Shown piece by piece: positions 15,284-22,519 of a stretch of DNA of 64,000 bases. Made by a program: the position numbers and the translations under genes. The stretch's first letter is position 1; each line of letters opens with the position of its first letter. This stretch comes from a virus. The stretch lies in the IMG/VR virus record IMGVR_UViG_3300042876_000902, positions 1 to 64,000 of that record; one strand, written 5' to 3'. The notes below the pieces were generated by a model. The model saw only the letters and a program-made list of their open reading frames with translations, was not told the origin of the DNA and searched no databases.

Positions 15284-17455
15284 ATGGCACAGGCATACAA
15301 GCCGCCGATCAACAGCCGGGACTCGGTCCGCACCGTGGCCCCGGAGGCGTTCGACGTCGATGCCTCCGGCTACGCCGTCCTCGCTGAGGCCCCGGCCGAT
15401 CCGTCGAACCCGAACACACCGATGATCGTCGTCGTCAACGGAACATCGCGCATCAGGGTCACCGGAACGCCCGGGGCCGGTCAGTACAGAGTGCTGAGTC
15501 AGGTGGTCAACACCGGGAACGGCAGCACGGCGACGGAGTATTTGCCGGTGCTTCAGTTTTCGTCGAACGACCGGAACTTGGCTGGCACGGCCGACTACTA
15601 CGCGAGTGGGACTGTGCTCACGCAGCAGTTCTTCGCGATGCTCGTCAACTTCTTGACGCCACTCGTCGTTGCGTCGCGGAGCGCTCTCCCCACGCCGACC
15701 ACGAACCCGTACTTGCGTGGCAGGCCTGGTGACCAAGCGTTCGATCAGAACGGGAATGCGTGGTGGTCGGATGGCACGCAGTGGCGGAACGTCGTCAACG
15801 TTCCTGAGGTCGCGAGCGCGGCAGCGGCGACGGCGGCCTTCGCCGCTGGAGCGATGTTCGTGAAGCGCACCGACATCATCGACGGATCTCCGATCGGTTC
15901 GACGACCACGACGACGGCCGGGCCGACCACTACGACGACGGCCGGGCCGACTACCACGTCCACGACAGGCGGCCCGACCACCACGTCCACGACGTCCGGG
16001 CCGACCACCACGACGACGGCCGGGCCGACCACCACGTCCACGACGGGCGGCCCGACCACTTCCACCACGACCACGACTACGACCACGACCACGACCACGA
16101 CGTCCAGTCCGGCGGTCACTTATTACAACGATTTCGCGTCGACCAATCTGTCAGCATTCACAGCGGATGCCAGCTTCAACGTCTCCGCTGGAAAACTTGT
16201 CAACACAGATGCGACCGCGGCGTGGAAAACTATCACATACGACGGGATCACAACGGCCGACGGTGTCATCGAAGCTGTCGTTCGAGCCAGTGAGACTGTC
16301 TCAAGCCGGTTTTTCGTGTTGGCGCTTCGAGTCAATGGCACTAGCCGGATCCAGCTCATCTGGAATTCGCATGATGAGGGGTCGAACCTCACCGAAGTTG
16401 CGAACGACGCCGGAGTCCAGACGACGCCCAGCTACAATCATCTGGCTGGCCCAGGAACGGATGTTACGCTGAGGCTTCAGATTCAAGGCACCACGGCGTA
16501 CGGGTACATCGACGGAGTTCTTCGGCATACGTTGCTGAACATCAACACCGTCACTGCCGCTGGCAAAGCGCGGATCATGCATTCAAGCAACGGAGTCGGA
16601 ACCAGCTCGTACGACAACCTTCTTGTGTCTACGAACCCAACTGCTGTTTATGTTGCGCCGACCACGACGACGGCGGCCCCGACGACCACCACGACGTCGA
16701 CGACGACGGCAGCCCCGACGACGTCCACCACGTCGACGACGGCGGCCCCGACGACGTCCACCACGTCGACGACGGCGGCCCCGACGACGTCCACCACGTC
16801 GACGACGGCGGCCCCGACGACGTCCACCACGTCGACGACTACCACGTCGACGACGACCACGTCGACGACGACGACCACGACGGTGGCACCACTCTTCTTC
16901 GACAACTACTCGACCGACCAGCTCGCTTCTGCTTACACGCTGGTCGGTACAGGGTGGTCCGTTTCGGGTGGGGTGCTCCGGAACCGCGCGTCGGTCGGCG
17001 ACAACTACGCTCTCTGGAATACCAACGTTCAGAACGGGAGCGTCGAAGCAAAGGTCTACATGGGGGCGACCGGTGGAAGGTTCATCGGTATCGTTCATCA
17101 GTTCATCGATGCGAACAATACCATCTTGATGCAGCTCGACTTGGACGCTGGAACGTCCATCAGGGCGCTCTCTGTCTACCGATTGTCCAGCGGGACTCCG
17201 GTCGAGGTTGGGACCGGGATCGTGGCTGAGTTCGGGCATCCTCAATACGATGCTGACATTGCCGCTCTCTCCGGCCGGAGTCAGTGGATCACGTTGAAGA
17301 TCGTCACCTCCGGGACAAGCATGACGGCATACCTGAACGGTGTTCTGAAGATCTCCGGGACTATGGCTGGTTCGGCATCTGGGAAGCCCGGTGTCCGCGC
17401 GTATTCTGGCGGTGAGTCGCTCCTCTATGACTACGATGACCTGATGATTCGGTAA
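15284..17455 (+). CDS. Mucin-like virion protein: two Thr/Ser/Pro tracts and two beta-sandwich (ConA/LamG-like) domains
   Basis: Roughly 70 aa Thr-rich tracts at about 15898-16108 and 16657-16883, each followed by a domain starting (Y/F)xD(F/N)...(F/W)xVSxGxL.N and ending GK.......YD(N/D)L. Confidence 0.65.
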   Translation: MAQAYKPPINSRDSVRTVAPEAFDVDASGYAVLAEAPADPSNPNTPMIVVVNGTSRIRVTGTPGAGQYRVLSQVVNTGNGSTATEYLPVLQFSSNDRNLAGTADYYASGTVLTQQFFAMLVNFLTPLVVASRSALPTPTTNPYLRGRPGDQAFDQNGNAWWSDGTQWRNVVNVPEVASAAAATAAFAAGAMFVKRTDIIDGSPIGSTTTTTAGPTTTTTAGPTTTSTTGGPTTTSTTSGPTTTTTAGPTTTSTTGGPTTSTTTTTTTTTTTTTSSPAVTYYNDFASTNLSAFTADASFNVSAGKLVNTDATAAWKTITYDGITTADGVIEAVVRASETVSSRFFVLALRVNGTSRIQLIWNSHDEGSNLTEVANDAGVQTTPSYNHLAGPGTDVTLRLQIQGTTAYGYIDGVLRHTLLNINTVTAAGKARIMHSSNGVGTSSYDNLLVSTNPTAVYVAPTTTTAAPTTTTTSTTTAAPTTSTTSTTAAPTTSTTSTTAAPTTSTTSTTAAPTTSTTSTTTTSTTTTSTTTTTTVAPLFFDNYSTDQLASAYTLVGTGWSVSGGVLRNRASVGDNYALWNTNVQNGSVEAKVYMGATGGRFIGIVHQFIDANNTILMQLDLDAGTSIRALSVYRLSSGTPVEVGTGIVAEFGHPQYDADIAALSGRSQWITLKIVTSGTSMTAYLNGVLKISGTMAGSASGKPGVRAYSGGESLLYDYDDLMIR
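16702..16833 (+). repeat. 33-bp tandem repeat x4 (TTAAPTTSTTS)
   Basis: gacgacggc(g/a)gccccgacgacgtccaccacgtc at 16702, 16735, 16768, 16801. Confidence 0.95.
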
Positions 17456-17469
17456 GGAAGGGGCTGCAA

Positions 17470-20486: not shown

Positions 20487-20497
20487 GGGAGGCGGCC

Positions 20498-22519
20498 GTG
20501 CTCTACGATTGCTTCACGTTCTTCAATGAGGTCGAGCTGCTCGAGATCCGGCTGCGCTCGCTCCGCGACGTCGTCGACCGGTTCGTCATCTGTGAGTCGC
20601 TCCACACACACTCCGGTCTTCCGAAGCCGCTGACCTTCCCGACGCTCGCGGAGAAGTACAAGGACTACCCGATCACGCACCTCGTCTTCCCGGGCGACCC
20701 GCGGGCCGGGCCGTGGGACAATGAGCACGGGCAGCGGAACCACATGACGAGAGCGCTCGGCGAGTGCAGGTCCGACGACCTGATCCTGCTGTCGGACATC
20801 GACGAGCTGCCGAACCCCGCTGCGCTCGGCGACCTCGGCGACGCGGAGGTTGGTGCACTCGAGATGGACCTCTGCTACTACTTCATCAACTGCCAGTTCC
20901 CACAGAAGTGGTACCACGCCAAGCTGTTCCGCCACCGCGCGATCGGGTCGCGGACGCTCACCGAGATGAGGTTCTCCGAGGCAAAGCTCATCAAGAACGG
21001 CGGGACCCACTTCTCCTACCTCGGCGGTGCCGAGCGGATCAGGACGAAGCTGCTGTCGTTCGCCCACCAAGAGTTCAACTCGCCGAAGTTCACCGACACG
21101 GAGAACATCGAGAGGCGGGTCGGGGCGAGCCGCGACCTCTTCGACCGCGGGGCGGACCTCGTCGTGCATGACCTGGTCGAGGCCCCGTACTACGTCCCGC
21201 GCAGCGTGCTCGACGAGCCGGACCGGTACCGCGGCCTGATCCGCACCCCGCCGATGAAGCACTTCTACCAGAGCATCCAAGGCTGGTTCACGTTCCCCGC
21301 CTTCTACCGCTCGATGGTCGAGCGGGCGCCGCAGGAGGGCGCACGCTTCGTCGAGGTCGGTTCGTGGAAGGGCACGTCGGCCGCGTACCTCGCCGTCGAG
21401 GTGGTGAACAGCGGAAAGCCGATCGAGGTGACGTGTGTCGACACGTGGAATGGGTCGGAGGAGCACGCCGGGTTCGACACCTCCCGCCTCTACGACGAGT
21501 TCATCGAGAACATGAAGCCGGTGAAGGATGTCGTGAAGGCGGTACGCGGGGCGTCGGTCGACGTCGCCACCACCTTCGATGACGGGTCACTCGACTTGGT
21601 CTTCATCGACGCGGCTCACGACCATGACTCCGTGAAGGCTGACATCGAGGCGTGGCTGCCGAAGGTCAAGACGGGCGGGACACTCGCCGGTCATGACCAC
21701 TCCCACCCTCCCGTTGGCCGGGCCGTGGCTGAGCTGCTGCCCGCGGCGGCGTCGGCGGGCGAGGACGTCTGGTGCTACCTGAAGCCGGGGCGGCAGCCGT
21801 TCGTCTCGTGCATCTGCCCGACCTACAACCGGGTCGGCGGCGACTACCAGTGGCTCATCGAGGAGTGCGTCGAGGCGTTCCTGCGCCAGACCTACCCGGA
21901 GGCGCTCCGCGAGCTGATCATCCTCAACGACCACCCCGGGCAGACGATCGTCTGCGACGCGCCGGGGGTCCGCGTCATCAACCACCCGCAGCGGTTCCCC
22001 ACCCTCGGAGAGAAGTACAACCACGCGATCGAGCGCGCTCGTGGCGAGGTCATCCTCTCGTGGGAGGACGACGACATCAGCCTCCCGAGGCGCATCGCGG
22101 ATTCGGTGGACCGGCTCGACGAGGGGTACGACTACTGGAACCCGCAAGGCTCGTGGTTCATGGACGGTCACGGGGCGCTCCACAAGACCCACCCGCAGGG
22201 CGTCAACCACAACGCGTCGGCGTTCACCAAGAAGGCGTGGCGGGAGGTCGGAGGGTACGCGCGGGTGTCTGGCCCGCAGGACGCGATGATGGATTCGGCG
22301 CTCAAGGCCAAGGTGAGGACGTCGCCCGTTCACCTGACTGAGCCGAGGAGGTGGAGCTTCATCTATCGGTTCGGCGTCTCCAACCTCCACCTCTCCGCGT
22401 TCGCCGACACGCAGCGCGTGTACGATGAGTACGTGCGCAGGGCGACCGTGCACGGTCGCTTCGTCCTCGCTCCCAAGTGGCGGCGAGACTACGCTGCGCT
22501 CGCCGCTTCGATGTCCTGA
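20498..22519 (+). CDS. Three-domain enzyme: GT17-like (beta-1,4-GlcNAc transferase-like) + SAM methyltransferase + GT2-like glycosyltransferase
   Basis: YDCFTFFNEVELLEIRL...VDRFVICES..THSG.PK, EHGQRN, LSDIDELP, HFSYLGG...KL.SFAHQE (GT17); VEVGSWKGTS, DLVFIDAAHD, GGTLAGHD (MT); VSCICPTYNR...ELIILND...WEDDD (GT2); GTG start 20498 after GGAGG. Confidence 0.88.
   Translation: MLYDCFTFFNEVELLEIRLRSLRDVVDRFVICESLHTHSGLPKPLTFPTLAEKYKDYPITHLVFPGDPRAGPWDNEHGQRNHMTRALGECRSDDLILLSDIDELPNPAALGDLGDAEVGALEMDLCYYFINCQFPQKWYHAKLFRHRAIGSRTLTEMRFSEAKLIKNGGTHFSYLGGAERIRTKLLSFAHQEFNSPKFTDTENIERRVGASRDLFDRGADLVVHDLVEAPYYVPRSVLDEPDRYRGLIRTPPMKHFYQSIQGWFTFPAFYRSMVERAPQEGARFVEVGSWKGTSAAYLAVEVVNSGKPIEVTCVDTWNGSEEHAGFDTSRLYDEFIENMKPVKDVVKAVRGASVDVATTFDDGSLDLVFIDAAHDHDSVKADIEAWLPKVKTGGTLAGHDHSHPPVGRAVAELLPAAASAGEDVWCYLKPGRQPFVSCICPTYNRVGGDYQWLIEECVEAFLRQTYPEALRELIILNDHPGQTIVCDAPGVRVINHPQRFPTLGEKYNHAIERARGEVILSWEDDDISLPRRIADSVDRLDEGYDYWNPQGSWFMDGHGALHKTHPQGVNHNASAFTKKAWREVGGYARVSGPQDAMMDSALKAKVRTSPVHLTEPRRWSFIYRFGVSNLHLSAFADTQRVYDEYVRRATVHGRFVLAPKWRRDYAALAASMS

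Follow-up and report, generated by a model that had tools for sequence, protein, structure and literature searches.

The window analyzed here is a stretch of 64,000 nucleotides, namely, the first 64 kb of the 81,968-bp IMG/VR virus record IMGVR_UViG_3300042876_000902 (CheckV completeness of 100%). Within the tail region of this phage lies an island of five genes, designated g1 to g5, all on the + strand with short gaps, which sits between the gene for the tape measure protein (TMP) and the DUF2460 distal-tail genes, as an initial annotation made from the letters alone had noted (coordinates are collected in Table 1). Based on gene content, gene pairing across phages, and structure models, we propose, with a probability of roughly 70%, that this phage glycosylates its own virion, using its own enzymes to build a methylated O-glycan on dedicated Thr tracts.

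The fibre-like g1 protein consists of a conserved N-terminal anchor domain (residues 1-174), a first Thr tract, a jelly-roll-like domain, a second Thr tract, and another jelly-roll-like domain; the two Thr/Ser/Pro tracts, already recognized in the initial annotation of this 723-aa protein, are encoded by tandem DNA repeats at 15900-16106 and 16659-16882. The beta-helix spike called there is g2, which matches both Pfam Beta_helix and PHROG tail spike families, and the 110-aa T/S/A/P-repeat protein said to overlap the next start is g3, the stop codon of which shares ATGA with the start codon of g4 (a 4-base overlap). The repeat DNA of g3 has a 24-bp unit present in 3.2 copies (98%). The reading of g4 as a fusion of a GT2-family glycosyltransferase (GT) and a methyltransferase (MT) held, the former domain by Pfam and the latter by structure model. 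For g5, the predicted fusion of GT17, MT, and GT2 domains was borne out by Pfam, whereas its start, first placed at 20195, had to be moved: the true start is the GTG at 20498, preceded by a GGGAGG ribosome-binding site, and the frame from 20195 overlaps g4 as Arg/Pro-rich junk. The GT17 domain of g5 retains D100-x-D102-E103, invariant in the family alignment. Compared with GT2-MT24-GT17, the commoner arrangement among its tri-domain relatives, the domains of g5 are circularly permuted (GT17-MT24-GT2). No transmembrane segment was found in any of the five island proteins, and g4 and g5 are predicted to be soluble enzymes. We picture the island as a candidate receptor-binding module (the g1 fibre and the g2 spike) joined to a putative virion O-glycosylation cassette (g3, g4, and g5).

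Fold and family of the g4 enzyme

An AlphaFold2 model of g4, with a predicted local distance difference test (pLDDT) score of 91.1, shows a GT-A domain (residues 1-265) and a Rossmann domain (278-452) joined by a disordered linker (266-277). When the GT-A domain was compared with known structures by VIA-align, the 29 best entries were all polypeptide N-acetylgalactosaminyltransferases (ppGalNAc-Ts), with Z scores of 19.7 to 23.7; these superimposed on about 250 of 264 g4 residues, with root mean square deviations of 2.6 to 3.3 Å and identities of 15 to 19%. The next GT-A classes (chondroitin polymerase, B4GALNT1, WrtF, and GlfT2) reached Z scores of at most 18.8 over some 206 to 215 residues, and the top Foldseek matches of g4 were likewise almost all polypeptide GalNAc-transferases (E of 1.7e-13). 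For the N-terminal half, an alignment of 27 family members shows D88, H90, H212, and an FGGEE motif to be invariant; in the C-terminal half, D373, D378, and H381 are conserved. By the offset between the aligned ranges (model residue 1 to chain residue 136), D88 and H90 would presumably fall on the D-x-H of GalNAc-T2 (D224/H226), with H212 a candidate for the distal His of a Mn2+ site. At the profile level, GalNAc-T10 (E of 5.5e-5) and TgGalNAc-T3 (E of 5.9e-4) are the sole matches of the g4 family that span positions 20 to 270. The C-terminal domain (residues 280-452) matches O-methyltransferases, including 8c9v (Z of 18.9) and the sugar 1-O-methyltransferase MeT1 (6g80; Z of 17.2, 22% identity). 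Altogether, g4 resembles a polypeptide GalNAc-transferase and probably works like one.

The likeness to the eukaryotic ppGalNAc-Ts (CAZy family GT27; GalNAc-T2 entries 6nqt and 2ffu, T. gondii GalNAc-T3, and Drosophila PGANT9) extends over the whole GT-A domain of g4 and may include the use of D-x-H in place of D-x-D; acceptors of these enzymes are Thr-rich tandem repeats, as proposed for g4. The ricin-type lectin domain, the membrane anchor, and the secretory pathway that go with GT27 enzymes are all absent in the case of g4, which carries a fused O-methyltransferase domain instead. We did not file g4 in GT27.

Several minor features of the family are recorded here. The top sequence-level PDB match of the g4 profile is 6h1j, annotated as 'Probable ss-1,3-N-acetylglucosaminyltransferase' (E of 4.4e-10, first 120 residues only); we take this entry to be TarP, the enzyme, encoded by an S. 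aureus prophage, that transfers GlcNAc to wall teichoic acid. A weak match of the profile (E of 0.008) is to SunS, which is a peptide S-glycosyltransferase. Many g4 relatives, unlike g4 of the window, carry a Cys-rich C-terminal extension (RL..C..C..R....C..CGC......CP...W).

GT-MT fusions such as those pointed out in the initial annotation turned out not to be rare: the g4-like architecture occurs in 3,867 representative clusters at an E value of ≤0.001 and in 931 at ≤1e-30, many of them matching end to end, and fusions of GT17 with MT24, with or without GT2, are common. A tblastn search of 50,697 GenBank phage records with g4 returned no match even at an E value of 0.01; with g5, nothing beyond the methyltransferase domain was found among these records, and no match came from a mycobacteriophage.

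The identity of the MT domains bears on another possible role, in which the enzymes place methylated sugars on phage DNA bases to evade restriction. Phage GTs often hypermodify DNA (PMC12619734), and PHROGs labels the MT24 family 'DNA methyltransferase'. The MT domains here, however, match sugar and small-molecule O-methyltransferases rather than DNA methyltransferases, the genes lie in the tail module and not among replication genes, and the pairing with Thr tracts described below is left unexplained; we regard such a role as highly improbable.

A recurrent gene pair of Thr-tract protein and g4-like enzyme

We scanned IMG/VR with the g4 family alignment and obtained at least 552 g4-like stretches, of which the best 80, with GC contents of 0.29 to 0.70, were kept; these loci were taken best first and not at random. 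A Thr tract was defined simply as at least 10 Thr per 20-residue window, and dereplication was coarse (70% identity). An open reading frame (ORF) with a Thr tract lay within 10 kb in 68/80 g4-like loci. In 53/79 loci, a same-strand Thr-tract ORF ended between -31 and +88 bases from the g4-like start, and after dereplication such an ORF directly preceded the g4-like gene in 34 of 51 clusters. As controls, a Thr tract was present in the immediate downstream ORF in 2/57 cases and in 13/391 ORFs of at least 200 aa lying more than 2.5 kb away. Among external controls, hub loci gave 2/51 (Fisher p of about 1e-22, taken with the GT17 loci below), and loci chosen for poly-Asp/Glu gave about 10/80, mostly out-of-frame junk. 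The initial annotation had expected GT17 fusions to co-occur with poly-Thr, an expectation that failed, with 0/68 GT17 viral loci having such a tract within 10 kb by the strict criterion and 1/68 by the looser one. As far as these genomes tell, the coupling to Thr tracts belongs to the g4 family and not to GT17.

The upstream partners belong to different families that have only Thr tracts in common; their median length is 850 aa, and no Pfam match was found among nine of them. In loci L384, L411, L412, L418, L404, and L379, the gene of the Thr protein follows the TMP gene at a distance of one to three genes, and in L399 the large ORF at this upstream position encodes a tail-fibre protein. After the g4-like gene, a relative of the C-terminal GT2 domain of g5 follows in 33/80 loci (up to 54% identity). 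In the window, g3, which lies 3.5 kb past the TMP gene, occupies the slot of the Thr-tract partner. As the cassette recurs across loci, g3-g4-g5 is, judged by gene order and homology, one example of such a tail-module cassette; in the window, GT17 and MT24 are joined to the second GT2 in a single protein. The initial annotation's proposal of virion O-glycosylation of Thr tracts with a methylated glycan gains support from the ppGalNAc-T-like fold, from the pairing in the dereplicated clusters, and from the recurring g5-GT2 relatives, all at the level of predicted proteins.

Partner C-termini include CxxxCKKLKF in some cases and IxINTSxGVKxL in others. The motif CxxxC(K/N)(K/T)L(K/N/G)(F/Y) is conserved at the C-terminus of the partners in L425, L441, L447-L449, L451, and L453, and Cys-rich modules come right after the Thr runs in many partners (upstream ORFs of L375, L381, L384, L390, L394, L404, L435, and L444). 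A likeness of g3 to the IxINTSxGVKxL type was considered and dropped, given a BLAST E value of 0.48 and an E value of 11 for g3 against a hidden Markov model of seven such proteins.

The reverse test started from viral records chosen only for 12 consecutive Thr codons; records had to be sizeable, and giant viruses were left out. A GT2 domain was present in 8/23 of the poly-Thr records compared to 0/22 poly-Asp/Glu records (p=0.004), and in six of these eight, GT2 lay 0.14 to 8.4 kb from the poly-Thr ORF, the closest at 143 bases. Since just one of the eight GT2 records had a g4-like GT2, there are hints that other GT families may also be paired with Thr tracts. One unrelated 113-kb phage record (L369, 3821-10344 of G019) has a GT2 gene followed by a gene for a 1199-aa poly-Thr protein; beyond the latter are, in order, genes for BKACE (3.5e-77), an enzyme that cleaves beta-keto acids, for a GNAT acetyltransferase, and for another poly-Thr protein, longer than 1250 aa.

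The gene-pair counts speak against the view that the enzymes remodel a host surface glycan, i.e., lipopolysaccharide (LPS) O-antigen, capsule, or exopolysaccharide (EPS) precursors carried by undecaprenyl phosphate, with superinfection exclusion or release as the purpose and the Thr tracts being flexible linkers. GT2 enzymes often use lipid-linked sugars, the weak matches of g5 are PglI and EpsE, poly-Thr ORFs are frequent in viral contigs, and PT-rich linkers are common in carbohydrate-binding proteins, all of which agree with this view. Nevertheless, it leaves unexplained both the ppGalNAc-T-like fold and the strict upstream adjacency, which, as counted above against the downstream and distant ORFs, holds over the full GC range and over differing partner families. 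In addition, the island has no flippase, GtrA-like, or membrane component, and its genes reside in the late tail operon instead of a lysogeny module; the Gtr seroconversion system (the flippase GtrA, the membrane protein GtrB, and GtrC, in a lysogeny module) is not matched by it. Pfam scans of nine proteins from the island and its flanks gave no Gtr-like match; Gtr genes were not sought elsewhere in the genome. A host-glycan role seems quite unlikely to us.

Distribution of Thr tracts in the genome

The Thr-tract scan covered all six frames of the 82-kb genome. In-frame tracts were found in four real genes only, all of them in the virion module: g1, g3, the gene of a 100-aa head-fibre-like protein, and that of the probable tail-tube protein. 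This confinement to the virion module suggests that the feature is more than chance. The tract DNA consists of tandem repeats with 27/78-bp, 33-bp, and 24-bp units of up to 98% identity, a structure that resembles mucin variable-number tandem repeats.

Residues 35-74 of the 100-aa protein match annotated head fibre proteins of Bacillus, Salmonella, and Klebsiella phages, and there is a further match to phrog_18880/12102. In the probable tail-tube protein, the Thr-rich insertion TTTTTTSSGSPG is absent in 11/11 aligned relatives, all of which lack the island. The AlphaFold2 model of this protein, built from 12 sequences, is poor (pLDDT of 53), leaving the tube fold unconfirmed.

Comparison with related phages

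We gathered 51 loci of relatives via the hub protein. As the initial annotation had assumed, the TMP and distal-tail genes are normally adjacent: the TMP match ends 20 to 33 bases before the DUF2460 match in the seven relatives in which both genes were detected (L070, L076, L077, L082, L083, L084, and L085; tail proteins 27 to 40% identical) and 17 bases before the distal-tail (Dit) match in a closer relative, L123 (JADHED010000448.1). No island gene was found at the TMP-Dit loci of the relatives. In L123, a g1-like fibre gene sits downstream of the central tail protein, and in L122 a g2 relative adjoins a g1-like gene. The N-terminal 174 residues of g1 are 45 to 54% identical to those of six proteins of 433 to 510 aa, which share the layout of anchor, repeat linker, and jelly roll; their linkers are Ala/Gly/Ser repeats without Thr tracts. 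Neither GT2 nor MT24 domains were found in two viral records with g1-like genes (G001, complete, and G002, 87%). Relatives that keep the tracts without the GTs had been named at the outset as a contrary case; the relatives of this phage lack both tracts and enzymes. Within this lineage, tracts and enzymes thus appear together, to judge from the genomes compared.

Relatives of g1 and g2 that occur elsewhere without GTs are what one would expect if the island were a chance juxtaposition, with a mobile cassette of fibre and spike genes lying beside a moron that is unrelated to it and has no functional link with it. The GC content, moreover, dips to 0.61 across positions 16001-18000 (g1/g2), compared to 0.65 to 0.69 on either side and about 0.66 in general, consistent with a recent gain of the fibre/spike part of the island. 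Neither the gene-pair statistics nor the Thr insertions in proteins 5 to 12 kb from the island fit a chance arrangement, and we give it very little credence.

Cellular relatives of g4

In a set of prokaryote genomes with one genome per species, 276 stretches encode g4 relatives (Chloroflexota, Planctomycetota, Hyphomicrobiales, and Actinomycetota), and a Thr-tract ORF lies within 6 kb in 51/79 cellular loci. One locus, from an Oricola sp. metagenome-assembled genome (NZ_JALEGV010000041.1; L486, 3202-8351), was looked at closely and has a context resembling that of ribosomally synthesized and posttranslationally modified peptides (RiPPs). There, the GT is encoded beside a PqqD-family protein, NTP_transf_5, and two peptides of about 100 aa in which Thr runs come after a common leader (…GKWTKPxVxLVVTPAHAASSAP), an arrangement that fits, on the basis of gene content, a peptide or protein acceptor for the g4 GT family. 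The Oricola GT protein, of 780 aa, carries an additional region at its N-terminus that is P-loop-like. Comparable small Thr ORFs were seen some 1.1 to 1.5 kb upstream of the GT in roughly ten further loci of alphaproteobacteria.

Cellular loci of this kind, in which small Thr-rich peptides with a leader accompany PqqD and NTP_transf_5, raise the possibility that the Thr-tract proteins of the phage are glycosylated without being parts of the virion, e.g., that g3-type proteins are released as glycopeptides or glycoproteins (RiPP-like products, decoys, or matrix/adhesion factors) made in infection. The g3 protein would suit this, being small, without a structural homologue, and translationally coupled to g4. 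On the other hand, the phage partners are mostly large and encoded one to three genes past the tape measure, and tracts are also found here in the fibre-like g1 with its anchor domain, the tail-tube homologue, and the head-fibre-like protein. We consider this alternative unlikely.

Taken with the phage loci, these relatives raise a broader proposal, to which we give even odds: that g4 stands for a large family, not described so far, of polypeptide O-glycosyltransferases of prokaryotes and viruses, combining a GalNAc-T-like GT-A domain with a sugar O-methyltransferase. Such enzymes would initiate mucin-type, methylated glycans; their acceptors would be the poly-Thr tracts of tail proteins in phages and, at bacterial PqqD loci, small Thr-rich peptides with a leader. 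Mucin-style bottle-brush glycoproteins would then be common, and so far unseen, in environmental phage particles, and the animal mucin-initiating enzymes may share ancestry with the family.

Proposed pathway of virion glycosylation

Under the virion-glycosylation reading, soluble g4 would act late in infection in the cytoplasm, its GT-A domain adding the first sugar to Thr/Ser residues of the tracts, the candidate substrates being g3, both g1 tracts, the tail of the head-fibre-like protein, and the loop of the tail-tube protein. The glycan would then be extended by the GT17 and GT2 domains of g5, and sugar hydroxyls would be capped by the two O-methyltransferase domains. Fibres, tail tube, and head fibres would in the end carry a methylated, mucin-like brush, which may shield the particle, help it to adhere, or act as a spacer that is stiff and resists proteases. 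In this scheme, we infer the acceptor, the sugar, the sequence of events, the building of the products into the virion, and any advantage for the phage.

Underneath the scheme lie direct observations, i.e., the domain identities, the insertion, the tandem-repeat tracts, and the pairing of Thr-protein and enzyme genes across phages. Several points nonetheless weigh against virion glycosylation. The best PDB profile matches of the g4 family are ordinary GT2 enzymes, aligned over the first 120 residues, and the modeled fold match would fix neither the acceptor nor the donor of g4. No adjacent Thr-tract ORF accompanies 26 of the 79 g4-like genes. The major capsid protein lacks a Thr tract, no relatives of g3 were detectable, and the placement of g1, g3, and the head-fibre-like protein in the virion is suggested by gene position and weak homology. 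The joint gain of tracts and enzymes in the phage's own lineage is a single event, and this phage and its cassette-bearing relatives are known from sequence alone, none of them having been cultured.

Relation to known glycosylation systems

Virion O-glycosylation by phage-encoded GTs is described for the mycobacteriophages Che8, Corndog (cluster O), and Myrna (PMC11600133, PMC12619734, PMC13313380), with glycans at the C-termini of capsid and tail-tube subunits (PMC12619734). That system resembles ours in having soluble phage GTs encoded near structural genes, including an O-methyltransferase in cluster O, and in modifying virion proteins that include the tail tube. It differs in that the enzymes are unrelated at the BLAST level; that the present phage has long tandem-repeat Thr tracts (26 to 90 residues) and a dedicated partner gene instead of subunit C-termini; and that its tail is of a Proteobacteria type, like that of gene transfer agents (GTAs), with a tract-free capsid protein. 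Mycobacteriophage virion O-glycosylation was reportedly the subject of a study by Freeman et al. in 2023. To our knowledge, mycobacteriophages are the sole phages for which self-encoded enzymes have been shown to glycosylate the virion.

In the chlorovirus PBCV-1, the protein A064R has been proven to be a GT-GT-MT fusion, and it caps an N-glycan of the capsid with methyl groups (PMC9614988). Like g5, it is a virus-encoded, soluble multidomain enzyme with two GT domains and an S-adenosylmethionine methyltransferase, and, as is proposed for g5, it acts on a virion-protein glycan; unlike the system proposed for g5, it serves an N-linked glycan of a eukaryotic virus, uses GT families other than GT17 and GT2, and has no repeat-tract acceptor, the two being likened by description. 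Streptococcal Pgf and the glycosylation of serine-rich-repeat adhesins modify Ser/Thr-rich regions (PMC12041528, PMC5856776). Both GtfA/GtfB and Pgf share with the island the encoding of dedicated GTs beside a Ser/Thr repeat substrate, and differ in that their substrates are cellular adhesins, GtfA/B are GT-B enzymes, Pgf acts outside the membrane via lipid carriers, and no methyltransferase is fused. GtfA and GtfB act in the cytoplasm.

It is thus already known that soluble enzymes encoded by a virus can glycosylate the particle of that virus and that the glycan can be methylated. New, going by the genomes surveyed, are the enzyme family, the tandem-repeat acceptors with a dedicated partner gene, and the breadth among uncultured phages. 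In the literature on poly-Thr or mucin-like tracts with phage GTs, or on GT27 in bacteriophage, this pairing was not found described, which, coverage being incomplete, is weak evidence of novelty. If our proposal is right, this would be a different and much more widespread system than that of the mycobacteriophages, represented by the IMG/VR stretches counted above and by none of the GenBank phage records, in which an enzyme resembling animal mucin initiators would act on purpose-built Thr-repeat acceptors in tail proteins. The picture of phage surfaces would change with respect to adhesion, stability, and host and immune recognition; a compact, soluble pair of enzyme and tag would become available for making mucin-like glycoproteins in bacteria; and the origin of GT27-type enzymes would become testable.

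Genome setting and flanking genes

The genome has a GC content of about 66%, and no tRNA genes were found in the phage sequence. The virion module takes up the left 30 kb on the + strand, with genes for a large terminase, portal, prohead protease, major head protein, tail terminator, the probable tail-tube protein, and the tape measure. Beyond the tape measure, the distal tail is of the GTA/phiJL001 type (DUF2460, Gp84_N/BR0599 hub, and Phage-tail_3). The closest cultured phages are Brucella phage BiPBO1 (large terminase, TerL, 49%) and Brevundimonas phages (tail protein, 34%), and megablast of the island against GenBank phages gave no match.

Table 1. Features of the island and of related genes in the window
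Feature	Position	Strand	Basis and remarks
Head-fibre-like protein, 100 aa, with 26-residue poly-Thr/Ser C-terminal tail	2828-3130	+	Tract at ~3047-3121, tandem DNA repeat; between terminase and portal
Probable major tail (tube) protein with Thr-rich insertion TTTTTTSSGSPG	10527-11300	+	Between tail terminator and TMP; phrog_8234; insertion at ~10811-10852
Tape measure protein (TMP)	11930-15268	+	PHROG tape measure families; upstream flank of the island
g1, 723-aa fibre-like protein	15284-17455	+	Translation; Thr/Ser/Pro tracts
g2, right-handed beta-helix, tailspike-like	17470-18780	+	Pfam Beta_helix 1.8e-7, Pect-lyase_RHGA_epim 7.7e-7; PHROG tail spike, pre-neck appendage
g3, 110 aa, four TTTSAAPA-type repeats	18799-19131	+	Translation; repeat DNA at 18849-18947
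g4, GT2 + methyltransferase	19128-20486	+	Pfam Glycos_transf_2 1.7e-9; weak Methyltransf_24 0.0034, confirmed by structure model
g5, predicted soluble GT17 + Methyltransf_24 + GT2 fusion, 673 aa	20498-22519	+	Pfam Glyco_transf_17 3.2e-23, Methyltransf_24 1.9e-21, Glycos_transf_2 3.2e-12
Two tandem half-size DUF2460 (distal tail) genes	22531-22971, 22973-23326	+	Pfam DUF2460, phrog_2913; downstream flank
Baseplate hub/tail assembly protein	23323-24165	+	Pfam Phage_phiJL001_Gp84_N, Phage_BR0599; flank

Within g1, residues 556-693 show a weak match to Pfam 3keto-disac_hyd (E of 0.004). The two DUF2460 genes downstream of the island are paralogues, one encoding a protein of 146 aa and the other a protein of 117 aa; their matches fall on the same stretch of phrog_2913 and, in the 205-position Pfam model, on positions up to about 80.

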